DNA from: a virus
Taxonomy: Duplodnaviria > Heunggongvirae > Uroviricota > Caudoviricetes
Virus record (IMG/VR): IMGVR_UViG_2684622552_000006
Direction: 5' to 3' (one strand)
DNA length: 38,623 bases
A model generated the notes under the pieces. The model was not told the origin of the DNA, did no database searches, and saw only the letters and a list, made by a program, of their open reading frames with translations. Position numbers and translations under genes: made by a program. Positions 4,651 to 37,586 of the stretch are shown here, one piece after another (positions within the stretch are counted from its first letter, which is position 1; each line of letters starts with the position of its first letter).

Positions 4651-4651
4651 A

Positions 4652-5300: not shown

Positions 5301-5308
5301 GAAATTAC

Positions 5309-9652: not shown

Positions 9653-9689
9653 GTCTTTCTCCAGCCATAAAAAAACCTGCCGCAGCAGG

Positions 9690-12276: not shown

Positions 12277-14355
12277 TTACTGTTTTTTGACTTTAACCAT
12301 GCCACGCCAGTCAAGCGGTGCGACCCCGGCATCAATGCGCACTTTGAATGCGGCCCCGTCAACGGTAAAGCCCTGCTGCTGTTCCAGATACGGAGTATCG
12401 ATACCGTCAAGATAAGCCACTTCAATCGTGTCACGCCCCTGTGCCGCCACCAGGTAATAATCGGTCGGGCTGCTGTCATCCAGACGGGCTTCTGACAGAA
12501 CGGTGGCAAAGTTCTGGATCGGGTTAACAATGCCGCTGTTGGCATCTGCCCCCGGTACACTGGAAGATTTAATTAACTGACTTGCCCGGGATTCAATGGC
12601 AACAGGTGTCAGCATAAAGGCCGGACGAATATTCAGGCGGCGGCTACCGGACTTTTGCAGCAACATGGCTTTACGCCCTGCATCCAGTCCTTCAATGGAC
12701 AGATCCGCAGTCACCAGGTTGCCGTGATCGGCATGGAACAACGGTTTACCATCAGACATTTTCGGGTTGCTGGTCAGTACGGCCCAGACAAGATCGCCCA
12801 CTGTGGTACGCGCTGCTGCTCCCATTGCCATCGGAATACGGGTCAGCATATCCAGGTCATCGTTAATGATGGTCTGGCGATCAATGCTGAAGAGTTCGCC
12901 ATACGTAGCCAGCGCAATGGGCTCACCGCGATCTTTAAGGGTTACATACTTATATTCAGCGCCCGGCTGAACCTGTCGCAGGGTCGGGAAAGCCTCCAGC
13001 CCCACACGGTGGGCAGTTTTAAAATCTGACAGCGTGCCCTTGCGGGTCCACTGGTCAAACGTTTCACTGGCGCTGCCCCAGCCCTGCAGTGCCGCTTTGT
13101 GAGCAACATCCATCAGGATATTGCCAAAGTCACTGCCACTGTGGGTGAATGCCAGCCCCACCATTGCCATCGGTGCGGCATGTCCGGAAATTCCGATGCC
13201 GCGATCCACCAGTGAGGCACGCGCCAGTTCGCGTAGCGTAAAGCCGTTATAGGCATTGTCTTTTTCGGCTTCGCTGTACCCTGCGCGAGCCATCACTGCT
13301 GCACGGATGGAATCACCCACCAGATTGCCGTTTCCTGCGTAAATGTGTGCTGCTCCCGGCCCGGCACAGGGCGTGGTACCCGCCGCCAGCGCCTGCAGCA
13401 GTCGTTCACGGGCTTTTTCAGCCGAGCAGGTGAAATCGCTCAGGCATTCCGCTTTCAGCGAGGCGAATGCCGGAAATGCGTCGAACACGGCAGAGACGGC
13501 GTTCACGCGTTCCGCATTGGCAGCCTGCATCTGCTGCTGTAGCTGAGTGGCCAGCGCGGCAATATCTACGGCGCCTGGCTGCGGTGTGTCCTGAGATACC
13601 TGTGGTGCCGGAGGCTGGCTGGCCTGCAGTGGGGTAACCTGAGTTTCTGCACGCGGAGCAAAAAGAGCATTAACCTGTTCTGGCATATTCTGATAATCCT
13701 TCAGTTTATTTTGGTTCACACAGGCCGCAGCCTGTAATTCGGGTTCGAGGGAGTCTGCAAAGCCCTTTTCCACAGCTTCAGCGCCGCTGAGCCAGGTTTC
13801 CGATTTCAGCATGGCCTCCAGCTCCTCCTGCCCCAGTCCGGTTTTATTCATGTAGGCAGACAGCATCAGCGCCTCGTTGCGATCCAGCCAGTCGGCATAA
13901 TCACGCATATCATCGGAATCACCGGCGATCCCGCCCCAGGGCTTATGCACCATAATCCAGGCGTTTTCAGGCATATGTACTGTGGCTCCGGGAAGGCAGA
14001 CGATCATCGATGCCATACTGGCAGCGACACCATCCACCCAGATATCCACCTTCGCTTTCAGGCGTGACAGCGTGTTAAAGATGGCAAAGCCCTGCATCAC
14101 ATCACCGCCCGGGCTGTGGATATGCAGATCAATGGCGCTGGCCTCAAACACCCCCGCATCTTTACAGTCAGTGATAAACTGCTGCGCGGTGATGCCCCAT
14201 CCACCAATCACGTCATAGAGGAAAATTTCCACCCGTCCGGTTGCCTGTGCACGGATTTCGTACCAGCACTGACCGTTTGCGGCATCGACACCCGCAAGGC
14301 TGGCGCGGGGATTAATCGTCATCCCGCGACAGGGCGGGCTTATCATTTGCTGCAT
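12277..14355 (-). CDS. Prohead protease (ClpP/S14-like) fused to major capsid protein
   Basis: N-terminal part carries ClpP-like prohead protease motifs (HIHSPGGDV...GVAASMAS...MVHKPWGG); the C-terminal roughly 400 aa is capsid-like. Start chosen at ATG 14355 with AAAGGAG 9 nt upstream; ATG 14322 is an alternative. Domain split judged by eye. Confidence 0.75.
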   Translation of the reverse strand: MQQMISPPCRGMTINPRASLAGVDAANGQCWYEIRAQATGRVEIFLYDVIGGWGITAQQFITDCKDAGVFEASAIDLHIHSPGGDVMQGFAIFNTLSRLKAKVDIWVDGVAASMASMIVCLPGATVHMPENAWIMVHKPWGGIAGDSDDMRDYADWLDRNEALMLSAYMNKTGLGQEELEAMLKSETWLSGAEAVEKGFADSLEPELQAAACVNQNKLKDYQNMPEQVNALFAPRAETQVTPLQASQPPAPQVSQDTPQPGAVDIAALATQLQQQMQAANAERVNAVSAVFDAFPAFASLKAECLSDFTCSAEKARERLLQALAAGTTPCAGPGAAHIYAGNGNLVGDSIRAAVMARAGYSEAEKDNAYNGFTLRELARASLVDRGIGISGHAAPMAMVGLAFTHSGSDFGNILMDVAHKAALQGWGSASETFDQWTRKGTLSDFKTAHRVGLEAFPTLRQVQPGAEYKYVTLKDRGEPIALATYGELFSIDRQTIINDDLDMLTRIPMAMGAAARTTVGDLVWAVLTSNPKMSDGKPLFHADHGNLVTADLSIEGLDAGRKAMLLQKSGSRRLNIRPAFMLTPVAIESRASQLIKSSSVPGADANSGIVNPIQNFATVLSEARLDDSSPTDYYLVAAQGRDTIEVAYLDGIDTPYLEQQQGFTVDGAAFKVRIDAGVAPLDWRGMVKVKKQ

Positions 14356-15823
14356 CAGGGAGCACTCCTTTATCGTTGGCGGCGTCAGAATCGAACACCA
14401 GCCCGTTTTGTCGGTTAAATTCGGTTTCACGCATTCGCTGGCGTTTGACCTCCTGCGGTGACTGCCCTCTGGCACGGATCCACTCGGCTTCCGTTCCTGC
14501 ACCACCACGAAGAATGGCCCGCCATGCTGCAGCCTCTTTGACGGGGTCAATCCACGGCATCACCGGACCAAGATAGGTCGCGTTAAAAAGCGTGGTTTTG
14601 TCGATATCAGGCGGGATATCCATGTCAAGCAACGCCATTGCCAGCCAGGCGCGGTACACCGGACGGCTGAACTGCCCCACAAACCATTGCTGCAGGACGT
14701 TATAACCTTCGTAACTTTCCACCAGTTCCTGACGTTGTGCGCTGTAGGTGCCGTTATAGTCACGGGCAATACTGGAATAGCTGCCGCGACTCCCGGCGGC
14801 AACCGCCCGCAGTTGCCCGTTACGAAACTCATGGAGGTGGACGTTCGGACGGTTTGACTCAACCATGCCCAGATCTTCCCCCGGCGCCAGGTCGTCGAAA
14901 ATCATGCCTGGCGCAATATCAAAGTGGCGGTACTTTTGTCCTGAGGGTTTCCAGTCTTCATCCGCCGGAAAGCTGGCGGCATCACCACGCTTGATGTAGA
15001 AGCCCAGCGCGGCAGCAATGCGGGCAGCCACACGTTCGCTCTCTTCGTAGTCCTTAATGTCACCCAGACGGCGGATCACCCCATGAAGCAGACTTATGCC
15101 ACGTAACTGGTGAAGGCGTTTACGCTGGGCAAGGTGCAGCATGTTCTCTGCCGCAATGGTTTTCAGTTCAGCGCTGAAGCGCGTCATACTGGCCGGGTGA
15201 TATTTGTAAACCCGGTAACCAACAGGACGCCCCCAGTCGTTAACGATAATGCCCTGGCGGATCTGCTGCCCCGATGTGCTGTTAAGACTGAACGGGACAA
15301 AATCAGCTTCCAGCAGTTCCAGTGAAAACGGCACTCGGGTTGCGTGCGTCAGTCCGGCAACCGGGCCCCGCACCAGCTGCGTGAACATCTCACCATCACG
15401 CAGTGCTGAACGCAGCGCCAGTCGCTCGGCTTCCGGACGGGTAAACACCCCCGTCACCTCCGGACGCACCGACCATTCCGACCAGAGTGCAGATATCTGT
15501 GCTGCAAATTCTTCATGCAGCTTACCGTCCAGACTGAGCGGTTGCGGCTCCACCTGGATCCCCTGCGCACCAATAACACGTTCTTCCAGCTTATCCAGCA
15601 GACCAATCACTATGTCATGGTCTTCATCCAGTGCCCGTGCCTGCTCACGCAGAGATACGCCAGCCACACCCACCGCAGTATCTGCCGCCCGACTCTCACG
15701 TTTTGTTTTGTTCACTCTGGAGGGGTGCGCCGCCTCGTAGGCGCGAAGAAGCATTCTGTTTCTGGCGCGCGAAACAGCCCACCCTGGCGCAATCGCGCCA
15801 AGTGCCCTGTCAAAAATGCCCAT
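14312..15823 (-). CDS. Portal protein (lambda gpB-like)
   Basis: 503-aa ORF after terminase large subunit and the gpW-like gene, matching lambda order A-W-B. Confidence 0.8.
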   Translation of the reverse strand: MGIFDRALGAIAPGWAVSRARNRMLLRAYEAAHPSRVNKTKRESRAADTAVGVAGVSLREQARALDEDHDIVIGLLDKLEERVIGAQGIQVEPQPLSLDGKLHEEFAAQISALWSEWSVRPEVTGVFTRPEAERLALRSALRDGEMFTQLVRGPVAGLTHATRVPFSLELLEADFVPFSLNSTSGQQIRQGIIVNDWGRPVGYRVYKYHPASMTRFSAELKTIAAENMLHLAQRKRLHQLRGISLLHGVIRRLGDIKDYEESERVAARIAAALGFYIKRGDAASFPADEDWKPSGQKYRHFDIAPGMIFDDLAPGEDLGMVESNRPNVHLHEFRNGQLRAVAAGSRGSYSSIARDYNGTYSAQRQELVESYEGYNVLQQWFVGQFSRPVYRAWLAMALLDMDIPPDIDKTTLFNATYLGPVMPWIDPVKEAAAWRAILRGGAGTEAEWIRARGQSPQEVKRQRMRETEFNRQNGLVFDSDAANDKGVLPDAANDKPALSRDDD

Positions 15824-15831
15824 GAATGACC

Positions 15832-16047
15832 TTACAGAAAGTTAGCGAGTTTGAAGTTGGTGCCGCGACCGTTGACGGCCTGCCAGCGTTTTTCCCAGTA
15901 TTCAAGCTCTTTACGAAGTGCGACGGGATCATGGTTGGTAATGGCGCGCCCATTCACGCCAGTAAAAGACACGCTTTTCCCGTCCAGAGAATCACGATAC
16001 GCCTGGCGTACCGTGACCAGCATCTGCTGGATTTCAGATTTCGTCAT
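15832..16047 (-). CDS. Head-tail joining protein (lambda gpW-like)
   Basis: 71-aa ORF between terminase large subunit and portal, the conserved gpW slot. Confidence 0.6.
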   Translation of the reverse strand: MTKSEIQQMLVTVRQAYRDSLDGKSVSFTGVNGRAITNHDPVALRKELEYWEKRWQAVNGRGTNFKLANFL

Positions 16048-18161
16048 AGCCAGCCTCCGTTACCACTGACCCCCAGCCAGCCGCCAGACAGTGGGCTGGC
16101 CTGTTCGGTGACGGCAACCGGAGATGAACGAGCGGATATCGCTTTTTTCACTCCCCTCTCCCCGGGGCGTTCCCCGTCAATAATGTCCGGATTTGTGTCC
16201 TGAGATGCCGCCCAGGCAGGCGGCTGCTCCCAGTCTCGGATTTTTTCGTAACCACGCAGAATAGCGACGGCATGGGCATAGCAGAACAGGTCGAATGCTT
16301 CGTTGTTCCCTTTACCTGGCTTGCGCCATTTTCCGTCGCTGCCCCGCTCCTCATAAGTCAGCTCCTCGTAAAACCACTCACCGAGCCAGTCGGGAAAATG
16401 GATATACCCGGCCCCCGGGGTTTCACGCTCCAGATTATTGCTGAGTTGATCTTTGAGCAGATCGGTCTGCAGCAGATATACCGGTACTTCGCCGCGGGCA
16501 TCAGCCCGGCGATCGCTTCGTCCGGTATTATCAGGGTGTGTTCGGGTGATCACTTTCTGGCGACGGGTACTGTCACCTTTTATCAGGTATACCCGTTTTC
16601 CCAGACCATCACGGCGGCATGTGCGCCAGAACTTATACGCATTATCCGTCACACCATCCTCACCCCCACTGTCCACAGCCATAGCCAGCACGGGCATACG
16701 GCGGGAAGGATTTGACTGGAGAGGGTATGTTTTCTCCAGCACATCCGTGATCAGCAACTGCCAGTCCTCAGGGTAAGAGCCCGGATGAATCGTCAGTGCC
16801 TCGCCGTTTTCATCACAGCGCAGGGACTGACGAATGTTATAGCGATCCACCAGCCAGCGTTCGCCGTTCTCACCGTAACCGATAATCTGCACCACAAAAC
16901 GACGTTTCTTCCCGCCCTGTACATCCACCGATGCCAGCAGAAAACGCACCTTCGGTGGTACCAGACGTTTACCGTAGTCCTCCGCCCGCTGCATCAGTAC
17001 ATCAGCCCTGCGCTGTTCGGTCGCCGCGCGTGGCAGATAAGGTAAGCCCCAGTCAGTGTTGATCACCGTTTTCAGTGTTTCTTCACTGCCTGTGGTTTCA
17101 TAGTCCTGCTCTGCCGTCAGTAATTTGTAAACCAGCTGTGCCCAGGTCTGGTAAGCCGCGGCGGGACCTTCCATCCAGAAGGACGCGATGCGGGAACGAC
17201 GGGCATCACCCGATATATTCCCGGCTTTATCAATGCTCTGACCTTCCCTGAGCCAGACGCCACGTCCGTTAAGCTCCCGCTTTTTACCAGCTGTGATCAC
17301 CCCGTTACAGTGCGGGCAGACGATATGTGCCGCTTCACTGGCTTTTACTGGATCGGCAATATCGCGGTAACCGGTCATCGCCTCCATAGCAGGCTGAAAG
17401 TACCCACCACAGTGCGGACAGGGCCAGTACCAGCGACGGCGATCACCGCGATTATATAAAGCCAGAATACCGGTAGTGGGTGGCGCTTCATGGGGTGATT
17501 TTCGTCGCCATTTGGTATTGGTGATTTCCCGCCCTGGCGAGCTCTCCACCAGGGTCATGCCCGCCGACATAAATGTGGTGGTTCGTTTTGAGGCCAGCGA
17601 AAAACCATCGCCTTCCCCGTCGATATCCTCCGGAAAACGGTCGTAATCCGTCAGTGCAACGCATTTAAAATCCGAGGATGACATGATGTTGACGGAGGGC
17701 CAGCCAATCTTGAGGTAGTTTCCGGCAAGAAACGTGCGGTCATGAACGTTGTTATCGTTACGCGACGGACTCAGCCTGCATGCCACTTCCGGGCTGACGC
17801 GAAATGTTCTGGCCAGACGTTTTTTGGAGTGTTCACGCGCTTTTTCTTCCGTCATCTGGACGATAAGCATATCCGACGGGTCACACACCACGTTGTACAC
17901 CACCCAGCCGTCAATCAGCCCAATTGTTTTACCTGTTCGGGCCGGACCAACAAAAATAACAGCATCATACTCACGTGATGCCAGGCAGTTCATCGGCTCC
18001 ACGACATAGGGGGCGAGTTGCGGATCCCATTCGACGGAGTTTCCGACGCCCACGGGAACCCGCATGTACTTATGAACGGCCTCGGCAACAGGCATCCGAC
18101 GCGGTGCCTTTATGATCCCGGCGGTATTCTTTCTGACTTCCGCCGCCGTGGCCTGTCGCAT
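16044..18161 (-). CDS. Terminase large subunit (lambda gpA-like)
   Basis: 705-aa ORF with Walker-A-like GPARTGKT and a CPHCGG zinc motif; ATG at 18161. Confidence 0.85.
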   Translation of the reverse strand: MRQATAAEVRKNTAGIIKAPRRMPVAEAVHKYMRVPVGVGNSVEWDPQLAPYVVEPMNCLASREYDAVIFVGPARTGKTIGLIDGWVVYNVVCDPSDMLIVQMTEEKAREHSKKRLARTFRVSPEVACRLSPSRNDNNVHDRTFLAGNYLKIGWPSVNIMSSSDFKCVALTDYDRFPEDIDGEGDGFSLASKRTTTFMSAGMTLVESSPGREITNTKWRRKSPHEAPPTTGILALYNRGDRRRWYWPCPHCGGYFQPAMEAMTGYRDIADPVKASEAAHIVCPHCNGVITAGKKRELNGRGVWLREGQSIDKAGNISGDARRSRIASFWMEGPAAAYQTWAQLVYKLLTAEQDYETTGSEETLKTVINTDWGLPYLPRAATEQRRADVLMQRAEDYGKRLVPPKVRFLLASVDVQGGKKRRFVVQIIGYGENGERWLVDRYNIRQSLRCDENGEALTIHPGSYPEDWQLLITDVLEKTYPLQSNPSRRMPVLAMAVDSGGEDGVTDNAYKFWRTCRRDGLGKRVYLIKGDSTRRQKVITRTHPDNTGRSDRRADARGEVPVYLLQTDLLKDQLSNNLERETPGAGYIHFPDWLGEWFYEELTYEERGSDGKWRKPGKGNNEAFDLFCYAHAVAILRGYEKIRDWEQPPAWAASQDTNPDIIDGERPGERGVKKAISARSSPVAVTEQASPLSGGWLGVSGNGGWL

Positions 18162-18671: not shown

Positions 18672-19263
18672 GATGGTGAACAATATTTAAGCGAATCGAC
18701 ATCATGAATAATTTCACAACTGAAATATCAACAGGTTAGATAAAAGATGATGATGCCGATAAAATGCAAAAAACCAGCCGTTTTCCGCGTGTCCGCAGCC
18801 CCCCGGTGTTTCAAATCGCCAGGAGGACCCGCCAACCGCTCTGGTTTACTCCGCAAAACGAATGAAAATCTGAACGACCACGGTCGCACAGACTAGAATA
18901 CATGTCCTGTTTCTTCCCCCCCACACAGAACTTGCGAGCATGAGGGACAAACCCGCGAATAATTAGCGCGGTAAAAACCCGGTGTGCATCGTTTTTGATT
19001 ATTTCCGCACACTCGCGCAGAGGAGTTCCCCGTCGGGCTACGGTCATTGTTAATGCGGGAATACGGCGACGATACAGCGCAGCTAAAAGGGTAAAGGACA
19101 GATAGAGCGGTTTATTTCATTCCACAGGATTCTGAATGTCCCCAACTCCCTCCAATAGTCTGAGCGTCCACCTGTGTAGTTTTAATTTTCATCAATTCAT
19201 TTAACTATCGTTTAATTGTTGTCACATAGGATTCTGCCGTTTTTAACAATGCAGGATAATAAG

Positions 19264-19557
19264 ATGAAAAAAATGTTGTTTTCTGCCGCTCTGGCAATGC
19301 TTATTACAGGATGTGCTCAACAGACGTTTACTGTTGGAAACAAACCGACAGCAGTAACACCAAAGGAAACCATCACCCATCACTTCTTCGTTTCGGGAAT
19401 TGGACAGGAGAAAACTGTTGATGCAGCCAAAATTTGTGGCGGCGCAGAAAATGTTGTTAAAACAGAAACCCAGCAAACATTCGTAAATGGATTGCTCGGT
19501 TTCATCACTTTTGGCATTTATACTCCGCTGGAAGCACGGGTATATTGCTCACAATAA
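19264..19557 (+). CDS. bor: Bor-family outer-membrane lipoprotein
   Basis: MKKMLFSAALAMLITGCAQQ... has a lipobox (LITGC) and closely matches lambda Bor as I recall it; opposite strand to the lysis genes as in lambda. ATG 19264 preceded by AGGA. Confidence 0.85.
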   Translation: MKKMLFSAALAMLITGCAQQTFTVGNKPTAVTPKETITHHFFVSGIGQEKTVDAAKICGGAENVVKTETQQTFVNGLLGFITFGIYTPLEARVYCSQ

Positions 19558-19565
19558 TTGCATGA

Positions 19566-19593
19566 GTTGCCCATCAATATGGGCAACTTTATC
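19566..19593 (+). terminator. Rho-independent terminator after bor
   Basis: 9-bp stem GTTGCCCAT/ATGGGCAAC with 4-nt loop, followed by TTTATCT. Confidence 0.55.
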
Positions 19594-20050
19594 TGCACTG
19601 TTCCTTAATATACTGCTGAGTCCCTTCCAGTTGTTTCTGCATTATTATCAGTCTATCTCTGAGGGTGAAATAATTCCGTTCAGCGGTGTCTGCCAGTCGG
19701 GGGGAGGCTGCATTATCCACGCCGGAGGCGGTGGTGGATTCACGCACGGACGGACAGACTGCTTTGATGCGCAACCGACGACGACCAGCGGCAACATCAT
19801 CACGCAGAGCATCATTTTCAGATTTCGCATCATCTAACTCCTTCGTGTATTTTGCATCGAGCGCAGCAACATCACGCTGGCGAAGCTGCATATCAGTAAT
19901 TGTCGAGTTCGCCAGCTTCAGTTCTCTGGCATTTTTGTCGCGCTGCTCTTTGTAGGCGATTGCGTTATCACGGTAATGATTAACAGCCCATGACAGGCAG
20001 ACGATGATGCAGATAACCAGAGCGGAGATAACCGCGGTTACTCTGTTCAT
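19589..20050 (-). CDS. Rz: Rz i-spanin
   Basis: Near-identical to lambda Rz as recalled ([30 protein letters not shown]...). ATG 20050 overlaps the R stop. Confidence 0.9.
19648..19833 (-). CDS. Rz1: Rz1 o-spanin lipoprotein (embedded in Rz, +1 frame)
   Basis: 61-aa ORF wholly inside Rz; lipobox VVGCAS and proline-rich [27 protein letters not shown], as in lambda Rz1. Confidence 0.85.
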
Positions 20051-20544
20051 TGCTGACCCCACAAACAGATTTCACGCTCAATCTCACGACGAGTCATGAG
20101 ACCTTTCCATTGCTTACCGCCAGCGTATGTCCAGCGCCGTAGCTGATCACATGCGCCTTTGATATCACTCTGGTTTATTTTGCGAAGAAGCGTCGATGTT
20201 CTGAAATTGCCAGCACCCACGTTGTAGACGAACGAGTAAAGAGCGCCGCGCGTTGTTTCCGGTATATCGACTTTGATGTACGGGTTAATTTGTCTGGCGA
20301 CAGTGGCAAGGTCTTTATTCAGGAGGGCTTTGCATTCTGCTTCGGTATACGTTTTACCGAGCATAATGTCTTTTCCGGTGTGTCCGTAACATACAGTCCA
20401 TACACCAACTATGTCTTTGTAAGGATTATGTCTCACACCTTCCAGACCATCGTTACCACTTGGGCCAGTGATTAACACAGATGCTATAGCAATAGCCCCG
20501 CCACCAATAGCAGCAGCAACAGCTTTTCGTAATGATGGAGGCAT
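20047..20544 (-). CDS. R: SAR endolysin (T4-lysozyme fold, P21 R-like)
   Basis: N-terminal Gly/Ala-rich weakly hydrophobic segment ([20 protein letters not shown]) followed by a lysozyme domain; close to P21 R / DLP12 RrrD as recalled. Confidence 0.9.
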
Positions 20545-20759
20545 TATTCACCTCTCGCAGCCTTGCGCTTATCTTCTTTAATCTTGAAATAAAGGTTTGT
20601 CAGGTACGTCAGCAGGCCAAATACCAAGCTACCCAGCACACCTATTGCTGCCCACTGTGAGGGCGTGACTTTATCGAGCAGCTGTAAAAACCAGTAGCCA
20701 GCACTGCCTGCGGAGGTGCCGTAGGCAATGCCCGTTGTTAACTTATCCATGGATTTCAT
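20544..20759 (-). CDS. S: Pinholin (S21-like) with dual start
   Basis: 71 aa with two TM segments; MKSMDK gives Met1 and Met4 dual starts as in P21 S21; GGAGGTGAGG upstream. Confidence 0.85.
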
Positions 20760-20854
20760 AGCCTCACCTCCGCAAATAACGGATGGTGTACACGGTTCGG
20801 AACGAAGAGGAAAGGTATAGAAGTTACATTAGCGTAAGGCTTGAACATCTATTC

Positions 20855-20886
20855 AAAAAGAAAAACGCCAGCGATTATTCTGGCGT
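20855..20886 (-). terminator. Rho-independent terminator downstream of the AraC-family gene
   Basis: 7-bp stem ACGCCAG/CTGGCGT with 8-nt loop, followed on the minus strand by TTTTTCTTTTT. Confidence 0.6.
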
Positions 20887-20947
20887 AGCTGAAAGCATCA
20901 TACAATTATCAAATACGAAAATTACAAAATCATTAAAACGCATCACA

Positions 20948-21679
20948 TTACATCATGTCTTTTTCTAAAAAAAATCTTGATGAATATTGATGGGGAGGAA
21001 CACCAAAATATCTTCTGAAAACACTTACAAAATATGACGTATTTTTATAACCGCATATCTCAGCAACTTTTCCAACAGAATATAAATTGTAGCTTAATAA
21101 CCTTTCCGCCATCACCATTCGCTCTTCAAGAATTAACTTACTAAATGATAAGCCTTCGTGCTTTAATTTTCTTTTTAACAGACTTTCACTCAGATACAGT
21201 CTTGAAGATATATCACAAAGTCTCCATGCTGCAGATATATCCGTGTGAATAATAGCCTTAACTTTACTTCCTAAACTATTAAGACATCCAAATAAAAAAC
21301 TTTGCACTATTTTCTCTGAAGATAAGATAGCAAGACATGCAAGTGATATTTGATTTCTAACAAAATCCACAGTTCTGCCATCACAATTCAAGCATGCAAT
21401 CAAGTTCTTTAACAATGAAAAATCTTCACATTCCACCATCAAGTATGCCGGATAAAACCTTCTTACAGAAAAAGGTGAGAGTGTGTTGCTTTTAAAGAAA
21501 TCATTAACTGTTTTCTCTTCAACATCTACGATCATTACATGATCTATATTTGATGAAAAAAAATCTTTTAAATTGTAATCAATGAGAACAGCACTTCCTT
21601 TTTTAAACAAAATATCTTCTTTACCAATTCGGGCATCAAACGAATTCAACACCAAAATGATAGAACATATGTATGGCAT
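20948..21679 (-). CDS. AraC-family transcriptional regulator (AppY/PatE-like cargo)
   Basis: C-terminal AraC-type HTH (YSVGKVAEICGYKNTSYFVSVFRRYFGVPPHQY); visibly AT-rich; sits between Q and holin. ATG 21679 preceded by AGGTGG; the track start at 21688 is GTG. Confidence 0.8.
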   Translation of the reverse strand: MPYICSIILVLNSFDARIGKEDILFKKGSAVLIDYNLKDFFSSNIDHVMIVDVEEKTVNDFFKSNTLSPFSVRRFYPAYLMVECEDFSLLKNLIACLNCDGRTVDFVRNQISLACLAILSSEKIVQSFLFGCLNSLGSKVKAIIHTDISAAWRLCDISSRLYLSESLLKRKLKHEGLSFSKLILEERMVMAERLLSYNLYSVGKVAEICGYKNTSYFVSVFRRYFGVPPHQYSSRFFLEKDMM

Positions 21680-22028
21680 ATTATCCACCTGATATCATTG
21701 AGGTTACACCAGGTAAGTATAGGTGGAAAATCAATATTCGCCAGTTCAACAATAAGGAAAATCTCATTGCATCACAAGTATAAAATTATGTATTTAACTC
21801 ACAAAGACAAATTATTAAACCAATCTGTTATATTATATATAGCTGCGTGGAATCATAATATTATATTTTGACTGGCATGTTTACCAACTTTAAGTTGCAT
21901 CTCAATGGTTTCTTCAGCGTAAACAGAGTTTTTATACAAACTGACACTCTGGGTATCATAGTGTAGTTTTTACGATTGTAAATATCCTGCATGCAGGAAC
22001 TCATCCTTTTGGATGATATCGCATACAA

Positions 22029-22988
22029 TTAATTTACCATCAGTCTTAGAGCCAGTTCGTCCGGATAGGGATCGAAGTAATTCTGTGTAAGCAAGTAATC
22101 ATTAGGATACTCACCCAGATAATGCTTCAGCAGAGTCAACGGCGCAAGAAGAGGTAATGTGCCAGAACGATAGTTAAGTATAACCTCGCTCAACTCTTTA
22201 CGCTGGCGTGTACTTAAGTAGTTACTAAAATACCCCTGTATATGCATCAGCACATTCGTGTGATTTTTACGTGATGCAGGTTTTCTGAGAATCGCCATCA
22301 GCTTATCACGATACACCTCAAAGTATGATTCAAGGTCCGCCCACTCGTGTATTGCAGCCACAAATGGTCCCATATCTTTATAGCCTGCCTGACTATGCGC
22401 CAATAACTGAAGCTTATAACGACTATGAAAAGCTAATAACTCTCTTCTTGATAATTTCTCCTTGTAAAGATGATTGAGCTCATGCAAAGCAAAAACTCTT
22501 TCAACAAAATTCTCACGAAGCACTGGATCATGTAATCGCCCATCCTCTTCAACCGGTAGCCAGGAAAACTTTTCCATCAAAGTGCTCGTAAATAGTCCCA
22601 CTCCATCTTTACGACCTTGATTACCATTTTCATCATAGACACGCACGCGCTCCATGCCACAGCTGGGAGATTTAGCACAAACCACAAATCCCGATACATC
22701 CTTTAATTTGTCCATATAAGAACGACTAAACTCTGTCATTCTCTCTGTCACATCCTCATTCTGGTCGTGGCTGAAACACATCCGTATATTTCCTTGCGTC
22801 GAGCGCACAAGACGTAGAGCAGGACGCGGAACTGGCAGCCCTATAGCCATTTCTGGACATACTGGTCTGAATGTTACCCATTCCACTAATTTGTCCATTA
22901 AAAAGTCAGCTCTTTTGTGACCACCATCAAAACGAACAGCAGAACCGGTCAAACAACCGCTGATTCCAATCACAGGTTTTTTTATCAT
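22029..22988 (-). CDS. DUF523/DUF1722 fusion protein (YbgA/TudS-like)
   Basis: N-terminal Cys-containing ISGCLTG...VRFDGGHKR resembles DUF523; C-terminal half resembles DUF1722. From memory only. ATG 22988 with GGGGGAG upstream. Confidence 0.5.
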   Translation of the reverse strand: MIKKPVIGISGCLTGSAVRFDGGHKRADFLMDKLVEWVTFRPVCPEMAIGLPVPRPALRLVRSTQGNIRMCFSHDQNEDVTERMTEFSRSYMDKLKDVSGFVVCAKSPSCGMERVRVYDENGNQGRKDGVGLFTSTLMEKFSWLPVEEDGRLHDPVLRENFVERVFALHELNHLYKEKLSRRELLAFHSRYKLQLLAHSQAGYKDMGPFVAAIHEWADLESYFEVYRDKLMAILRKPASRKNHTNVLMHIQGYFSNYLSTRQRKELSEVILNYRSGTLPLLAPLTLLKHYLGEYPNDYLLTQNYFDPYPDELALRLMVN

Positions 22989-23180
22989 ATTCTCCCCCTT
23001 GACTAATTCATTAACACATAAACTGTGTAGTGCACGGAATAAATTGCCTTTCTGGCGTCATCACTGACAATTTTTCTGTTATGGACTATTCCTAATATAG
23101 TATGAAAGTTCTTTAAGTGATCGGTCGTAATCATCTATCTTTCATACTTACTCTCAACTATCAAAAGTACAGGATTTATT

Positions 23181-23705
23181 ATGAAGTTATGGCCTGTGTT
23201 GACTGGCATTGCACTCTCTTTCACTCTTATAGCATGTAAGGCCCCGACACCACCTAAAGGTGTGCAGCCGATTACAAATTTTGACGCCAACCGCTACCTC
23301 GGAAAATGGTATGAAATAGCTCGCCTCGAGAACCGGTTCGAACGTGGTCTGGAACAGGTCAGCGCTACTTATGGAAAACGGAACGACGGAGGGATTCGTG
23401 TACTTAACCGTGGATACGATCCAACGAAAAATAAATGGAGCGAGAGCGAAGGTAAAGCATACTTTACTGGAGATACTAAAACTGCAGCGTTGAAGGTTTC
23501 GTTTTTTGGCCCCTTCTATGGTGGCTATAATGTAATCAAACTGGATGATGAGTATAAGTATGCTCTTGTCAGTGGTCCGAACAGAGAATACCTATGGATT
23601 CTGGCAAGGACCCCAACTATTCCAGATAAAGTAAAAGCAGACTATGTGCGAACCGCTCAAAAGTTGGGATTCAATGTCAATGAATTATTATGGGTTAAAC
23701 AATAA
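23181..23705 (+). CDS. Bacterial lipocalin (Blc-like outer-membrane lipoprotein)
   Basis: Signal peptide with lipobox (FTLIAC); NFDANRYLGKWYEIARLENRFERGLEQV and SFFGPFYGGYNVI match the E. coli Blc pattern as recalled. Opposite strand to the late operon. Confidence 0.8.
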   Translation: MKLWPVLTGIALSFTLIACKAPTPPKGVQPITNFDANRYLGKWYEIARLENRFERGLEQVSATYGKRNDGGIRVLNRGYDPTKNKWSESEGKAYFTGDTKTAALKVSFFGPFYGGYNVIKLDDEYKYALVSGPNREYLWILARTPTIPDKVKADYVRTAQKLGFNVNELLWVKQ

Positions 23706-23730
23706 AATCCCTACTCGAAATAATACTTAT

Positions 23731-23758
23731 TAGAAAAAACCAGCCTTTGGAGAGGCTG
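23731..23758 (-). terminator. Rho-independent terminator downstream of Q (tR'-like)
   Basis: Stem CCAGCC/GGCTGG with 8-nt loop, followed on the minus strand by TTTTTT; about 100 nt downstream of the Q stop. Confidence 0.55.
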
Positions 23759-23859
23759 GCTAAATCAGGAAACAAGCTGTTATATGATAATAACTACGTT
23801 GCGATTCCAACATTTAAAATGTTAGACTAATGACAATCAGACAGCAACTTTTCCTTTAA

Positions 23860-24237
23860 TTATTTCGAACAATCAGCATCCATCTCCAATCGGAGATCCA
23901 ACACCATCAGCATACCCTCCACTACGCCCTCAGCTTTCTGGAGCATCCTGCCAACCCAACAATCAGATCGCCCATGCTTACGTGCAAGCGCCATAAAAGT
24001 CATGCCGCCGACATAATAGTCCACCAATAAATCATGCAAATCGCTGTTGTTCTTTTTCAGACGGGCCATGCACCCGCAAATGATCATCGCGTCATCGTCA
24101 CAACATTGTGGGCGAGATTTTACTTTTGAAGGAATTAATCCCTTAAAACCGGCGGCAATGGACGACCAGGTCACATCTTCATGATTATTAGCCGCCCACG
24201 CTCCCCAACGCTCAAGAACCATCTGAATATCACGCAT
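23860..24237 (-). CDS. Q: Late-gene antiterminator Q (P21/DLP12 QuuD type)
   Basis: About 125 aa with a Cys-rich segment ([18 protein letters not shown]); immediately downstream of rusA/ylcG as in DLP12. ATG 24237 with GGAG 9 nt upstream. Confidence 0.8.
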
Positions 24238-24322
24238 CAACTTACTCCACAAAAATCAGACCAGAACGCCAATTACAAGCAAAAATCAACAAAACAGTAT
24301 TAGTTGATTGTTATCTCTGACT

Positions 24323-24460
24323 TCATACTCCTGCTCCTGTCAGGGTTTTGGCGTAATTCTTCAGTATCCGGTAATCGGTCAAAACAGAACCGGGGAAACG
24401 ATATAAGCGCAGGCGCATCCAGCGGTGGCGAAGACGTTCTGCCACATAAAACTCAAACAT
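24323..24460 (-). CDS. ylcG: YlcG-like small protein
   Basis: 45-aa ORF I translated by hand ([45 protein letters not shown]); its ATG overlaps the rusA stop; too short for the ORF track. Confidence 0.5.
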   Translation of the reverse strand: MFEFYVAERLRHRWMRLRLYRFPGSVLTDYRILKNYAKTLTGAGV

Positions 24461-24822
24461 CATTCATTCCCCATTTCGGTGATGGTCAGTTCCAGCCTCC
24501 CACCTTTGGTAACTGGCATCTTCACAACGCGGTAATCAACGACCTGAGCATCATCCAGCCAGAAACCTGCTTTGGTGAGTGCGTCAAAAGCGGCTTTTTG
24601 TAGATTATCCAGGTCACGGCGACGGCGATCCGGCATGTGGCACTCAATGCGGATTTTCACAGGCATAGCCAGGCCGATATCCAGCATTGCGTTTTTAATG
24701 ATTCGGGCGACGTTATCGCGGTATGCCTGCCCCTCTGCGCTGACGTGCGTGCGCCCGCGATTATGGCGGTAATAGCGATTATTGCTCGGAGGCCAGGGTA
24801 ATGTGATGCTGTAGGTATTCAC
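24460..24822 (-). CDS. rusA: Holliday junction resolvase RusA
   Basis: 120 aa, matches E. coli RusA as recalled ([25 protein letters not shown]...); GTG start. Confidence 0.9.
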
Positions 24823-25109
24823 GCCTTAATAACCCCCTCTTTCAGCCAGATAACCTGTGTTCTCGCCATACCTTCCAGCGCGCATTCTTTTGCATATCCA
24901 GCGTCAACAAAATGCGTGCGACGGTCGATCTCATCGTGACAGGCAGAACATGCAATGGTGGCGATCAGGTCTGGCGGTTTGGTACCGGTGCCACACAATC
25001 CAGCCAGCCGGATATGTGCCAGTACAGACGTTTCAGGGTTGCCATTACATATGCCAGGGATTCTTACCTGGCATTCCCGACCACGCGCTGCTTTTCTCAA
25101 ATCAGCCAT
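24819..25109 (-). CDS. ybcO: YbcO-like nuclease (DUF1364)
   Basis: Cys-rich small protein ([11 protein letters not shown]...CSACHDEID); ATG 25109 preceded by AGGAGG; canonical position between ninE and rusA. Confidence 0.7.
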
Positions 25110-28753: not shown

Positions 28754-29455
28754 TTATGATCTACCTCCTTTCAGTCCGAACTTAGCTTTGATTTCTGCGA
28801 TCTTCGCCAGAGCCTGTGCACGATTTAGAGGTCTACCCCCCATGACAGGAAGTTGTTTCACTGGTTCAGGGATTGCCTCACCACGGTTAATTCTCGCAGT
28901 CATATGGACAAGCTCATCTGCGGCCTTGCGCCGTAATTCCGCGTCAGTCAACGCATTGGCCCGCATGTTCTGGTACAGATTGGTAACCAGCCAGTAGTGC
29001 GCGTTTGATTTCCACGGATAAGACTCTGCATCTGGATACAGTCCACGCTTCCGGCAATACTCGTAAACCATATCAACCAGCTCGCTGGCGTTTGGCAGTC
29101 CGGCAATAACAGATGCTTCTTCACGACACCAGGCAACAAACTGCCCGGGTGATGGCAGGAATGGTCGATTCTGCCGACGGGCTACGCGCATTCCTGCGTT
29201 AACCTGTTCCATTGTGGTGATCCCGTTTTCCCGGAAAGCCAGAACCCACTGGCGGCGGATTTCGTTCAGTTCGTTCTGGTCACGATTAGCCAGGCTCGCC
29301 GGGAAAGTTGCCAGTAACTGGCTGAACACACCGTTGATGATCTGCGCTACCTGCTGTACCTGCGGCTTTTCGTCGTACTGTTCCGGCATGTTGTTGGCGA
29401 TCCGGCGCATCTGCTCACGGTCAAAGTTAACCATCTGTGCGGCGATGTTTTTCAT
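28754..29455 (-). CDS. P: Replication protein P (lambda P-like helicase loader)
   Basis: 233 aa, essentially the lambda P sequence as recalled (MKNIAAQMVNFDREQMRRIANNMPEQYDEKPQVQQVAQIINGVFSQLLATFPAS...). Confidence 0.9.
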   Translation of the reverse strand: MKNIAAQMVNFDREQMRRIANNMPEQYDEKPQVQQVAQIINGVFSQLLATFPASLANRDQNELNEIRRQWVLAFRENGITTMEQVNAGMRVARRQNRPFLPSPGQFVAWCREEASVIAGLPNASELVDMVYEYCRKRGLYPDAESYPWKSNAHYWLVTNLYQNMRANALTDAELRRKAADELVHMTARINRGEAIPEPVKQLPVMGGRPLNRAQALAKIAEIKAKFGLKGGRS

Positions 29456-30381
29456 AGCTCCACCCCGTAGATCCAGTCAGTGTTCGTCAGGTCGAGTTTT
29501 GGTTTGCCGGCTGTCACGCCAGCCTGTTGCTTGTTTCGGTTGATTTCGAGCTGGGTCCACTTGTCGCGGAGTTTGGCCGGACTCAGCACGTTACCGGACC
29601 AGAAGTTGTCCTGGCATGCCCAGCGGAACAGTACACACATGTCGCGGTGGTTACGTCCGTCACGTTCACGCATCAGGCGGATATCGTTAGCCCACCCTGC
29701 AAAATTCGGTTTTCTGGCTGATGGCGCGATGGTCTTCACCATGTCAAACATCCACTCTGCGGCGGTCAGGTCTTCTGCTGTCCCCCACTTGCTGCCGCTC
29801 TGAATTGCAGCATCCGGTTTCACCACAGAAAGATCGTTTTCTGGCTGGTCAGAGGATTCGCCAGAATTCTCGGACGAAAAAGGTTTTATATTGTCTTTTG
29901 TTAGTTTGTCTTTTGTGTTTACCTGATTCGGGTAAACGTCTTTACCTGATTTGGGTAAACTTTTCTTACCTGATTCAGGTAAATTTACCTCTTTCAGGTA
30001 AACTTTATTTTTCTTACCTGATTCGGGTAATGTTGACCATTCACTGACCACATTATTAATGCCGATATTCCGCCCGCTCTGAATAAGAATCCCACGCTTT
30101 ACCAGAACGCTTTTTGCAGCAGAACACTTGTGCGGCAATATCCCGGTCAATTCGGAAAGTTGCTCGTTGCTCACCCAATCCAGTTTTTTATTAAAGCCAT
30201 ATGTTTTGCGCATGACAGCCAGGAAGACCAGAAGCTGGTGCTGTGTTAATCCGGCCAGCATCACAGCTTCCAGCAACTCATTTGCAATGCGCGTATAACC
30301 ATCATCGAGATCTGCCACGCGCGGCTCCTTTTGTGCCACATCCGGCACTGGAAAATTGAATATCTCAGCAGTGTTTGCCAT
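29452..30381 (-). CDS. O: Replication initiator O (lambda O-like)
   Basis: N-terminal VADLDDGYTRIANELLEA...LAVMRKTYGFNKKLDWVSNEQLSELTGILPHKC resembles lambda O; iterons lie inside the gene; ATG 30381 with GGGAGG upstream (the track ORF is extended to 30471). Confidence 0.85.
   Translation of the reverse strand: MANTAEIFNFPVPDVAQKEPRVADLDDGYTRIANELLEAVMLAGLTQHQLLVFLAVMRKTYGFNKKLDWVSNEQLSELTGILPHKCSAAKSVLVKRGILIQSGRNIGINNVVSEWSTLPESGKKNKVYLKEVNLPESGKKSLPKSGKDVYPNQVNTKDKLTKDNIKPFSSENSGESSDQPENDLSVVKPDAAIQSGSKWGTAEDLTAAEWMFDMVKTIAPSARKPNFAGWANDIRLMRERDGRNHRDMCVLFRWACQDNFWSGNVLSPAKLRDKWTQLEINRNKQQAGVTAGKPKLDLTNTDWIYGVEL
29918..30030. repeat. Origin of replication: 4-5 iterons inside O, flanked by an AT-rich tract
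   Basis: Direct repeats of the approximately 18-bp palindromic unit TTACCTGATTCGGGTAAA at about 29918, 29941, 29966 and 30013, with a degenerate copy at about 29984; T-rich stretch at 29881..29917. Confidence 0.8.
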
Positions 30382-30467
30382 AATTCCTCCCGCAATGAGT
30401 GCGTTACGATTTGCACCTGAAAGTCGGTTCTGTTCCAGCAGACCGGCTTTCGCCATTTCTGAACCTG

Positions 30468-31013
30468 TCATATCGCCCCCAGCATGGTGGTGACCATCGC
30501 CATCAATGGACCAGCCAGATCCGGGTCCACACGAAACATCGACACAATGCCTTCACTCATCTCCTTCAGTTTCTGGTGGCGTGGCGCGTTGAGAATGACA
30601 GCCTGTTTTGCTTCACTGAGTTCCTTTTCCATTTCAGCCAGCCGAGCCATGAAGCTATCCTGCTCAACCAGGTAACCGCGATATTCCAGCGGTAGTACCG
30701 CCAGAATTGCCGGGGTCAGTTCACGCACGTTATTTCGGTATTTTTCAGAATCGAATTTGTTATCGAGGAAGCGGAACAGCTTCTGGCGTGCACGGCTGAC
30801 ATCATCAGGGAAATCGATGGTGCCGCCGCCCTGCTCCCGATACTCATTCACAATGAGTGCGGCAACAACATCCTGATTATCTGCAGCCGACCAGGCGCGA
30901 ACGGCATCACGGATTTTTTCGTGGCCTGGCACCTGTTTTGTTTGAGAACGATTTATCACCGCAGTCGGGCTAAATCCGCTAGTCTGTTGGTATGTAAGTG
31001 GTTGCATAGTCAT
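30468..31013 (-). CDS. Regulatory protein in the cII position (YdaT-like?)
   Basis: 181-aa ORF between cro-like gene and O; weak remembered resemblance to YdaT-family proteins (EYREQGGG segment). Assignment uncertain. Confidence 0.4.
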   Translation of the reverse strand: MTMQPLTYQQTSGFSPTAVINRSQTKQVPGHEKIRDAVRAWSAADNQDVVAALIVNEYREQGGGTIDFPDDVSRARQKLFRFLDNKFDSEKYRNNVRELTPAILAVLPLEYRGYLVEQDSFMARLAEMEKELSEAKQAVILNAPRHQKLKEMSEGIVSMFRVDPDLAGPLMAMVTTMLGAI

Positions 31014-31265: not shown

Positions 31266-31375
31266 TATCAATTCCTATTGGTATTGCAATGAATGGATAA
31301 TAGCAATGCGTATTAATCCAAGCAATAGCAAAACGTGTTTTGACCATCAATACGCAAGCGTATAAATTAAAACTT
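31266..31375. promoter_or_regulatory. cro-cI divergent promoter/operator region
   Basis: Contains several copies of an ATAGCAAT-like motif. Minus-strand promoter for cro: TTGCTT, 17-nt spacer, TATTAT. Plus-strand promoter for cI: TTGACC (31340..31345), 15-nt spacer, TATAAA (31361..31366), placing the start at or just before the cI ATG (leaderless-like). Confidence 0.6.
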
Positions 31376-32068
31376 ATGAAAAAAGAAACTCTTGCTGATC
31401 GCTTAAACCTAGCGATGGAACAATCTGGAATGTCTCAAGGCGCTCTTGCAAAGGCGTCTGGCGTAGCTCAACCCACAATCTGGAGACTGACAAGCGGCAA
31501 CGCGCGCGGCTCAACAAAAATTGTTGAAATAGCTAATGCATTGGGTGTTCGAACAGAGTGGCTCTCATCAGGCATAGGCCCGATGAGAAATGACGGTCAA
31601 CAATCAGGGAAGCCTGCTGTCAACCATTCCAAATACTTCAAGATTGACGTTCTTGATATAGAAGTCAGTGCCGGGCCGGGAGTCATCAACCGTGAGTTTG
31701 TAGAAGTTCTACGCTCGGTTGAGTACTCGTTTGACGATGCTCGTCACATGTTCGATGGTAGGAAGGCAGAAAATATCCGCATCATTAACGTACGCGGTGA
31801 CAGCATGTCAGGAACGATCGAACCAGGTGATCTTCTGTTCGTTGATATCACGGTTAAATCTTTCGACGGTGATGGCATCTATGCGTTTCTGTACGACGAC
31901 ACCGCCCATGTAAAGCGCCTGCAAATGATGAAGGATAAGCTGCTGGTTATCTCTGATAACAAGAGCTACTCACCGTGGGACCCGATCGAGAAAGACGAGA
32001 TGAACCGGGTGTTCATCTTCGGTAAGGTTATTGGGAGCATGCCCCAGACGTACAGGAAACATGGATAA
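31376..32068 (+). CDS. cI: CI-type prophage repressor (HTH plus S24 LexA-like peptidase)
   Basis: N-terminal HTH (MSQGALAKASGVAQPTIWRL) and C-terminal S24 autopeptidase features (VRGDSMSGTIEPGDLLFVD ... KRL); ATG 31376 has no Shine-Dalgarno sequence. Confidence 0.85.
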   Translation: MKKETLADRLNLAMEQSGMSQGALAKASGVAQPTIWRLTSGNARGSTKIVEIANALGVRTEWLSSGIGPMRNDGQQSGKPAVNHSKYFKIDVLDIEVSAGPGVINREFVEVLRSVEYSFDDARHMFDGRKAENIRIINVRGDSMSGTIEPGDLLFVDITVKSFDGDGIYAFLYDDTAHVKRLQMMKDKLLVISDNKSYSPWDPIEKDEMNRVFIFGKVIGSMPQTYRKHG

Positions 32069-37238: not shown

Positions 37239-37586
37239 GTGGAAGAAGAAATCTTCACTCGTGAAGAGGCTGCGTCGTATCTGAAGGTAGACAAAGGCAC
37301 TATCACGCAGTGGATACGAAGTGGACGACTTCAAGCCGCAAAGATAAATCCAGATAAACCTAAAAGCCCATATCGCATTTGCAAGTCAGACTGCATTGCG
37401 GCGCTTAAGTCTGTGAGACACAATGGCGCGGTGAATGCGGTTGATGTGCAGGAGGTTAAAGCATGTCAATCAAACTGCGCGGTGGCACATGGCACTGCGA
37501 TTTCGTCGCGCCAGATGGATCAAGAGTTAGACGCTCTCTTGAAACATCGGACAAGAGGCAAGCGCAAGAACTTCACGATCGTCTGA
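37239..37586 (+). CDS. xis: Excisionase / AlpA-like HTH protein
   Basis: HTH-like FTREEAASYLKVDKGTITQWIRSGRL immediately upstream of int. Start uncertain: GTG 37239 with GGAG upstream, or the track ATG 37167. Overlaps the int 5' end. Confidence 0.5.
   Translation: MEEEIFTREEAASYLKVDKGTITQWIRSGRLQAAKINPDKPKSPYRICKSDCIAALKSVRHNGAVNAVDVQEVKACQSNCAVAHGTAISSRQMDQELDALLKHRTRGKRKNFTIV

Follow-up and report, generated by a model that had tools for sequence, protein, structure and literature searches.

What occupies the slot between the antiterminator gene Q and the holin gene S in the prophage IMGVR_UViG_2684622552_000006, where did the genes in it come from, and what might they do for the phage or for its host? 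The window analyzed here is the whole stretch of 38,623 nt in this record, from a virus of the Caudoviricetes. Its Q-S slot holds three genes, which encode an AraC-family regulator, a fusion of a TudS (DUF523) domain with a DUF1722 domain, and a Blc-type lipocalin lipoprotein. An earlier interpretation made from the letters alone, called the sequence-only reading below, had described these genes as a three-gene cargo island. Our comparisons revealed that the three genes do lie side by side as cargo; they are, however, not one unit but two modules of separate origin. The explanation that we favor takes positions 20771-23877 as exchangeable Q-S cargo made of two independently acquired modules, and it proposes roles for Blc, for the fusion protein (RudS), for the regulator and for late transcription. 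Taken as a whole, with all of these roles included, we consider it likely to be correct.

The minus strand of the window is the phage strand, and along it the genes follow one another in the order RusA, YlcG, Q, blc, rudS, the AraC-type gene, holin, RrrD-type lysozyme, Rz/Rz1 and Bor, with blc (plus strand) and Bor read in the opposite direction. The upstream border of the slot is a Q gene of the Q21/QuuD type (23860..24237, minus strand; PF06530, 2.5e-51), and the downstream border is the gene of an S21-type, EssD-like holin (20544..20759, minus strand; PF04971, 2.2e-35). Between them lie the gene of the Blc-type outer-membrane lipocalin lipoprotein (23181..23705, plus strand), which is antisense to late transcription, the gene of the TudS-DUF1722 fusion (22029..22988, minus strand) and the gene of the AraC/XylS-family regulator (20948..21679, minus strand). 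The listing of open reading frames (ORFs) and scans with Pfam and NCBIfam profiles thus found all three genes at the positions, in the orientations and in the families that the sequence-only reading had given for them.

Morons, or lysogenic-conversion cargo in the sense of Hendrix and Juhala, are recognized by their patchy presence, by a promoter and a terminator of their own and by a deviant base composition. To see whether the three genes behave in this way, we compared the window with prophage DLP12 of Escherichia coli K-12 by blastn. Homology to DLP12 was 94.6% up to position 23878, 18 nt short of the 3' end of Q, and returned at position 20770, 11 nt 5' of the ATG of S (essD), with 91.6% identity; there was no match between these points. 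When the Q gene was compared with K-12 quuD and with its counterparts in other phages, homology likewise stopped at 23878. The variable block defined by DLP12 is therefore 20771-23877, with limits nearly identical to the interval 20760-23859 singled out by the sequence-only reading. In DLP12, the slot contains nmpC on the strand opposite to Q. In the phages ev017 and ev243, the same RusA-YlcG-Q and holin-RrrD-Rz-Bor backbone carries an OmpC/NmpC-type porin gene in the slot, again on the opposite strand, whereas Escherichia phage 1H12, a Jouyvirus of the same genus as ev017, has the three-gene island in this very place. The island is thus present in some phages and replaced in others with common flanks (K-12 DLP12, ev017 and ev243 versus 1H12), and this direct comparison of the Q-S interval, with a porin swapped for the island on one backbone, bears out the proposal that the slot is a site of lysogenic-conversion cargo.

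The porin moron and the island have their breakpoints in common, one at the 3' end of Q and one shortly ahead of S, and nmpC resembles blc in that it encodes an outer-membrane protein and is read against the direction of late transcription. The nmpC moron differs in that it is a single gene of unrelated sequence, with no regulator or enzyme. The cargo of Stx (Shiga toxin) phages 3' of Q is likewise placed between Q with its late promoter PR' and the lysis cassette and is crossed by late read-through; unlike that cargo, the island has no toxin or tRNA genes, and one of its genes is antisense to the late operon.

The base composition of the island is also unlike that of the neighboring phage genes. 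Its GC content is 37.9%, against 49-50% in the flanks and in the window, and the individual genes have values (31% for the AraC-type gene, 43% for rudS and 44% for blc) that mark the island as foreign to its flanks. The long AT-rich non-coding spacers that had been noticed from the letters were confirmed: the stretch 5' of the AraC-type gene (21680..22028, minus strand) has 32.4% GC, with a promoter-like site and a second PR'-like motif, and the 192-bp divergent region between blc and rudS (22989..23180), which is presumed to hold the promoters of both genes and is conserved in length, has 33.9% GC. Neither contains a conserved ORF. Two small spacer ORFs (55 aa, 21861-22028; 43 aa, 23003-23134) are not considered genes, because stops or frame-shifting indels break both of them in other alleles. 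An Rfam scan of positions 19000-25000 gave sub-threshold chance matches only, the best of them scoring 27.5 bits against a gathering score of 50.

Which protein is the TudS-DUF1722 fusion? It has 319 aa, with PF04463 at residues 7-149 (2.8e-40) and PF08349 at residues 192-309 (1.9e-40), and thus the complete TudS-DUF1722 architecture. This is the fusion by which RudS was defined, an enzyme that removes the 4-thio group of 4-thiouridine (s4U) in tRNA (Jamontas et al., NAR 2024, PMC11417400). Cys12, Cys44 and Cys110 are all present in the window protein as candidate ligands of a [4Fe-4S] cluster, and the same three cluster cysteines are listed for RudS_vir and RudS_ST (PMC11417400). Over all 319 residues, the protein is 93% identical to RudS_vir, which is gp66 (H3V29_gp66) of phage 1H12. 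Every RudS assayed, RudS_vir included, lowered tRNA s4U on overexpression (PMC11417400). On sequence grounds, then, we identify the protein as the tRNA 4-thiouridine desulfidase RudS. The DUF523/DUF1722 domains seen in the sequence-only reading were confirmed; the protein is nevertheless not one of unknown function, since an orthologue with 93% identity has been experimentally tested. RudS_vir agrees with the window protein in architecture, length and cysteines, and its gene lies in the same place, between blc and the AraC-type gene in the Q-S slot; the window RudS belongs to another allele and diverges from it by 7% in amino acids. The paper on RudS did not discuss the prophage context or the prevalence of the gene, and it states that E. 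coli has no TudS and RudS homologues (PMC11417400). That statement fails for about 21% of complete E. coli genomes, which carry the prophage copy. One E. coli record contains a longer version of 403 aa, with 99% identity to RudS along 92% of the query plus an added GGDEF match (PF00990); it is probably a rearrangement fusion or an annotation artefact.

The lipocalin has 174 aa and matches PF08212 (Lipocalin_2) with 7e-44 and the NCBIfam Blc profile NF007786 with 316 bits, above the cutoff of 267 bits. Its lipobox is LIAC with the lipid-bearing position at Cys19, so that fold, lipobox cysteine and profile score all agree with the Blc family. That blc can be a moron is on record, since more than half of 19 gut lambda phages were reported to carry it as one (Mathieu et al. 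2020, PMC6969025). The phage Blc was 80% identical to the Blc encoded next to rudS in Enterobacter and in Citrobacter sedlakii, and only 60% identical to the Blc of K-12, whose gene is linked to ampC. Many Enterobacterales were found to have such a second, rudS-linked Blc paralogue, distinct from the ampC-linked blc of E. coli.

To reveal the origin of the pair, we scanned the GTDB species genomes and found 64 rudS loci. With the exception of two contigs in a metagenome-assembled genome (MAG) of Nanosynbacter and one unclassified MAG, these are chromosomal rudS genes with 66-77% identity to the phage gene product, from Citrobacter, Enterobacter, Kluyvera, Leclercia, Klebsiella, Pectobacterium and others. 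A Blc gene lies divergently 5' of rudS in 43 of the 64 loci, and its product is 69-82% identical to the phage Blc. In C. sedlakii (locus 4283-5960), blc and rudS are directly divergent with a gap of 187 bp, against 192 bp in the window, and in all three alleles of the phage island this gap is exactly 192 bp with 90-96% identity. In Enterobacter (E. hormaechei, locus 3018-5960), the divergent blc is followed by an MlrA-like MerR gene, a transthyretin/HIUase-like gene and rudS; a MerR linkage of chromosomal rudS was noted in the RudS paper as well (PMC11417400). Because these 43 loci and the geometry of C. sedlakii match the phage arrangement, and because the phage Blc is nearer to the rudS-linked Blc, the comparison indicates that blc-rudS is a chromosomal gene pair that was captured as a unit, without its MerR-type regulator. 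The chromosomal modules of Enterobacter, Leclercia and C. sedlakii are divergent like the phage pair, with 80% identity in Blc and 70-77% in RudS; they differ from it in being GC-rich and, in Enterobacter, in having the MerR and transthyretin-like genes in between. The GC content at third codon positions (GC3) is 0.38-0.41 in phage blc and rudS and 0.68-0.82 in the chromosomal homologues, and this low GC3 of the phage copies argues against Enterobacter or Citrobacter as the direct donor. Neither among 5.8 billion proteins nor among the GTDB species genomes did we find a RudS with between 77% and 93% identity.

The third gene has a different history. Its ORF spans 20948-21688 (minus strand), and the ATG start used in RefSeq gives 20948-21679 and 243 aa. 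The protein has the C-terminal double helix-turn-helix of AraC-type regulators (HTH_18, 1.9e-14; HTH_AraC, 2.3e-11) and belongs to the clade of PatE, PsrA, YdeO, GadW and AppY. It is 53% identical to ECs_0287, a 247-aa regulator of Sakai prophage Sp1 that we presume to be PatE (z0321) on account of its length and its location within Sp1. Identities to the other members, over about 235 residues each, are 39% to PsrA (ECs1087, taken with an extended start), 34% to GadW and 32% to AppY and YdeO, while the match to GadX covers the DNA-binding domain only. The analogy with PatE and AppY drawn in the sequence-only reading was therefore apt, as far as sequence relatedness goes. The best NCBIfam profile is YdeO, which matches at full length with 1.6e-37; the regulator is not a YdeO orthologue, because its score of 129 bits is below the equivalog cutoff of 348. 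An N-terminal M..CSVI motif is common to all members of the clade, the regulator included. Relatives are few, with 28 matches in a large protein database, nearly all of them in prophage contexts of E. coli. The AlphaFold (AF2) model has a mean predicted local distance difference test score (pLDDT) of 77; its nearest full-length structures are CsvR, Rns and ToxT, and its DNA-binding domain superposes on that of GadX with a root-mean-square deviation of 1.1 A and 40% identity. These fold neighbors support the class of the regulator. A fatty-acid pocket like that of Rns or ToxT was considered and dropped, as the identity (17-19%) is too low to assign the pocket residues.

PatE (z0321), PsrA (z1789) and PsrB (z2104) of enterohaemorrhagic E. 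coli (EHEC) O157:H7 are likewise prophage-borne proteins of about 240-247 aa with the same two-domain layout. PatE and PsrB activate gadE and hdeA, and PsrA represses type III secretion via GadE (review, PMC10877973). In Sakai Sp4, the PsrA gene likewise has Q on one side and the lysis genes on the other; the presumed PatE gene is located elsewhere, near pinE in prophage Sp1. In comparison with these three proteins, the regulator is only 25-37% identical in its N-terminal domain, and it occurs in commensal and extraintestinal pathogenic E. coli (ExPEC)-type genomes and is not tied to the effector loci of the type III secretion system. Its DNA-binding domain is 70% identical to that of the PatE-like protein, and recognition helix 1 is 94% identical. 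At the DNA level, the AraC-type segment was not seen outside the island, save for coding-region matches of about 70% to the presumed PatE gene. In E. coli Nissle, overexpression of a "PatE homologue", CIW80_12240, raised acid survival (bioRxiv 10.1101/2025.08.01.668021). We could make no link between CIW80_12240 and the island regulator, as the RefSeq tag with this number, RS12240, belongs to bcsZ.

The AraC-type gene has a layout of its own, with a predicted promoter, the gene and a terminator, whereas blc and rudS have the conserved divergent intergenic region only. The putative promoter is a sigma-70-like site, TTTACA-16-TATGAT at 21982..21955 (score 10/12), in the spacer block that is best conserved across all three alleles. 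The terminator that had been claimed for this gene holds up, as a hairpin with T-run is predicted at 20865..20886 (read 20886..20865 on the minus strand) and is invariant in three diverged alleles. Together with the difference in GC content (31% against 43-44%), the predicted promoter and terminator argue that the AraC moron was acquired separately, and the island is thus a composite of two modules, the blc-rudS pair and this moron. In the leader of the gene (21690-21735, minus strand), a CCACCT element located some 36 nt upstream could base-pair with the Shine-Dalgarno sequence AGGTGG, and both are invariant in the three alleles. A structured 5' untranslated region, or a fold that sequesters the ribosome-binding site upstream of the gene, was considered and rejected, as its stability was no better than that of shuffled sequence (z = -0.78).

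How widespread is the island, and is it maintained? Of 5426 complete E. coli genomes, 1152 (about 21%) have a match to its interior, and in 1000 of these at least 80% of the island is covered; a query that includes the Q and S flanks has matches in 4523 genomes. There are at least three alleles, with about 99%, 94.7% and 89.8% identity, found respectively in DLP12-like remnants, in a Qin-like backbone (ydfU-Q ... essD-ydfR-rrrQ) and in 1H12-type (Jouyvirus) phages; a further backbone with the island is the contractile-tailed prophage of the window itself. Among 80 IMG/VR loci, 68 have the full order Q+ Blc- RudS+ AraC+ S+ R+ (signs giving strand), and the remaining 12 have subsets of the same order, mostly where a locus is cut at a contig end. 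The spacing from Q to S is 3.1 kb in 68 of 72 measurable loci and 4.4-4.5 kb in the other four. Synonymous divergence (dS) between the alleles is 0.19-0.58, and the ratio of nonsynonymous to synonymous divergence (dN/dS) is 0.22-0.26 for the AraC-type gene, 0.12-0.20 for rudS and 0.07-0.22 for blc, values similar to those of Q and S. All three genes are under purifying selection. Each of the three proteins has its own PHROG family, labelled "unknown function", and all three genes are annotated in the RefSeq records examined. Functional temperate phages from the infant gut also carry the island.

Insertion sequences (IS) are frequent in the island, with IS1, IS2, IS3, IS911 and tnpA of IS200/605 seen in many E. 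coli genomes. A variant in strain SRY206 has lost the AraC-type gene to IS1 and keeps blc and rudS intact. The E. coli B/BL21 lineage (C43(DE3), locus 3501-4897) has Q and an intact phage-type blc, but IS3 interrupts rudS and leaves just its first 49 codons; because of this truncation, E. coli B/BL21 strains have the phage lipocalin and not RudS. The two short contigs in the "Candidatus Nanosynbacter" (Saccharibacteria) MAG carry the island with 93-100% protein identity (Q, Blc, RudS, AraC, S and R), and these copies are almost certainly binning contamination.

If the island lies in the path of late transcription, signals for it should be found just 3' of Q. The Q protein is distantly related to Q21 (PDB 6P18, E 1.9e-8), which confirms the Q21 family, and cassettes of this family consist of Q followed by PR', a region with the sigma-dependent pause and the Q-binding element, and a terminator (bioRxiv 10.1101/651190). 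The DNA 3' of Q is unalignable between the window and K-12, ev017 and ev243, except for the 9-mer ATATAACAG (23785..23777), which is the only sequence downstream of Q common to the window, K-12 DLP12, ev243 and ev017. It is part of a 20-nt motif, TAT[C/A]ATATAACAG[C/A]TTG[T/G]TT, that occurs twice on the phage strand, at 23770-23789 and at 21818-21837. To judge by the shared 9-mer, the first copy, TATCATATAACAGCTTGTTT (23770..23789, minus strand), is the candidate core of the late promoter or Q-loading region, and we regard the ATATAACAG motif as a candidate part of that region. Directly 3' of it, 99-122 nt past the Q stop codon, lies an intrinsic-terminator-like hairpin with T-run (23738..23761, read 23761..23738 on the minus strand; a 9-bp stem with 5 G-C pairs, then TTTTTCT), a candidate tR' whose position fits the Q21-family cassette. 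The second copy (21837..21818) is about 140 nt 5' of the start codon of the AraC-type gene, and its similarity to the first extends to about 40 nt. The window and the Qin-type allele have it, as do 69 of the 80 IMG/VR loci, and it is deleted in the 1H12 allele, so that in two of the three alleles the regulator gene is preceded by a duplicate of the PR'-like motif. This copy may be a duplicated late promoter or Q-loading core, a second Q-responsive start, or the relic of an earlier position behind Q. The anatomy suggests that transcription across the interval depends on Q, and K-12 and ev017 have an equivalent late-transcription geometry with nmpC.

The gene identities, the cargo status of the interval, the chromosomal origin of the pair and the purifying selection are directly supported by these comparisons; for the promoters, the read-through by Q, the targets of the regulator and a benefit to phage or host, we infer the following course of events. 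The blc-rudS pair would have come from an enterobacterial chromosome in one piece, leaving behind the MerR-type regulator that stands beside Enterobacter rudS. Blc would be an outer-membrane lipocalin expressed by the lysogen, like Bor and like NmpC in the sister phages, because it is read from the strand opposite to late transcription. RudS would act as a [4Fe-4S] desulfidase that converts s4U at position 8 of tRNA to uridine, and since E. coli has no chromosomal RudS, the prophage would supply the activity. It would be expressed from its own promoter in lysogens and, because rudS is co-oriented with the late operon, strongly after induction; it could then blunt the s4U-C13 cross-linking induced by ultraviolet A (UVA) light, the ensuing defect in tRNA charging and the growth delay. 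The low-GC AraC moron would supply a regulator of the PatE/PsrA/YdeO class, and our best guess is that it likely binds and activates AT-rich, H-NS-silenced acid-resistance promoters of the GAD/hde type (gadE, hdeA), as PatE and PsrB do. On induction, RNA polymerase modified by Q would start just 3' of Q and would have to traverse the entire island and pass both terminators before it arrived at the lysis and structural genes, yielding transcripts that are antisense through blc and sense through rudS and the AraC-type gene.

Several observations weigh against this explanation. Frequent IS interruption and the rudS stump in E. coli B indicate that loss of the island is tolerated. RudS_vir desulfidated tRNA more weakly than other RudS proteins despite good solubility, had some activity on free 4-thiouracil and showed the shortest lag on this substrate (PMC11417400), so tRNA is perhaps not the only or the main substrate of RudS. 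The identity of ECs_0287 with PatE is a presumption, and a literature search by locus tag found no paper linking ECs_0287 to z0321. The N-terminal domain of the regulator is 37% identical to that of the PatE-like protein; its signal and possibly its regulon may differ from those of PatE, and the blc-rudS promoters could be its targets instead. Finally, a scan with a generic promoter consensus was at chance level (13 sites against 11.3 expected), and the placement of PR' is suggested by one short motif, with no -35 element, -10 element or Q-binding element recognized in the sequence.

Other explanations of the island have to be weighed against the favored one. That the three genes are simply a conserved core of this phage lineage would suit their constant order and content wherever the island occurs, and is nevertheless hardly credible: a porin fills the slot on the same backbone, the composition is foreign to the flanks, and because 1H12 has the island where the congeneric ev017 has a porin, the genes are not lineage core. 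The sequence-only reading had itself named core-gene status as the finding that would overturn it, and the comparison across related phages rejected that case. Could the island then be selectively neutral, H-NS-silenced passenger DNA that hitch-hikes with the Q-S region and is decaying? Its AT-richness (31-38% GC), the insertions of five kinds of IS, the remnant of blc plus 49 rudS codons in E. coli B and the variant without the AraC-type gene would all be in keeping with decay. This idea is improbable in view of the roughly 1000 genomes that retain at least 80% of the island and the annotation of all three genes in RefSeq, of dN/dS values of 0.07-0.26 across alleles with dS up to 0.58, of the conserved promoter block and terminator, and of the functional infant-gut phages that carry it.

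Two further alternatives concern function. RudS, and perhaps the regulator, could serve primarily as auxiliaries of the lytic cycle, driven by PR' and Q after ultraviolet (UV) irradiation and the SOS response, so that s4U is stripped from tRNA, translation is kept up, the stringent response is suppressed and burst size rises. The co-orientation of rudS and the AraC-type gene with the late operon, between the PR'-like motif and S, speaks for this, as does the absence from the phage copy of the MerR regulator found beside chromosomal rudS; moreover, overexpression of a RudS (RudS_KT) cut the UVA-induced growth delay, and chromosomal rudS genes lie in light- and UV-responsive operons (PMC11417400). 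We nonetheless hold a primarily lytic role to be unlikely, as the conserved 192-bp divergent region 5' of rudS suggests a promoter of its own, sister phages do without the gene, and many carriers are defective, non-lysing DLP12- or Qin-like prophages whose genes are still intact and under purifying selection. A bolder proposal is that RudS is a late-operon eraser of tRNA modification, freed of its light-sensing MerR regulator, that fires on UV induction, forestalls UVA cross-linking, the build-up of uncharged tRNA and the stringent response and so spares late protein synthesis, gives UVA tolerance in lysogens, and is coupled to acid resistance by its PatE-like neighbor; we regard it as speculative and rather doubtful. 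As for the regulator, it could be a local one that acts on the blc-rudS promoters or on its own gene and replaces the lost MerR/LitR-type regulator. The three genes always occur as a set with one fixed order, the AraC-type segment was not seen elsewhere as DNA apart from the weak PatE matches, and the chromosomal blc-rudS modules do have an adjacent regulator that the phage version lost. Still, its GC content and its own promoter and terminator point to separate acquisition, its DNA-binding domain and recognition helix are close to those of the PatE-like protein while the targets of PatE are host gad and hde genes, and a variant without the gene has blc and rudS intact, so that a purely local role appears possible and not probable.

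Cargo in the Q-S slot is a well-known type of feature, and blc as a moron and the biochemistry of RudS orthologues had already been described. New here are the composite origin of the island, its exact breakpoints, its prevalence of about 21%, the evidence of selection, and an uncharacterised member of the PatE/PsrA/PsrB family. Very common prophages give about one fifth of sequenced E. coli an enzyme, otherwise said to be absent from the species, that would erase s4U from tRNA, and the same prophages provide this paralogue of regulators of acid resistance and virulence. If the genes are expressed, differences between strains in near-UV tolerance, in the dynamics of the stringent response, in acid survival and in gut passage might be traceable to a cassette of 3 kb. 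The island is no new kind of system; it is a clean case of a phage that captured an intact chromosomal gene pair and swapped its regulator.

Outside the slot, the window (1-38623) appears as a complete prophage that joins lambdoid regulation and lysis to a contractile-tail virion module. It encodes an integrase (37463-38623), a CI-like repressor (31340-32068), an O-like replication protein (29452-30471), a large terminase (16044-18161), a protease-major capsid fusion (12277-14550) and a tail sheath (8183-9727), with baseplate/VgrG-like genes near its left end. No complete E. coli genome has a single place that matches over 49% of the first 25 kb of the window. In phage order, RusA (24460-24822, minus strand) lies with YlcG 5' of Q, as seen in the ORF listing and the Pfam scan. 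At the other end of the lysis cassette, directly 3' of Rz, there is a gene for a Bor/Iss-type outer-membrane lipoprotein (19264-19557, plus strand), a second antisense envelope moron in the late operon, whose orientation mirrors that of blc here and of nmpC in the sister phages.

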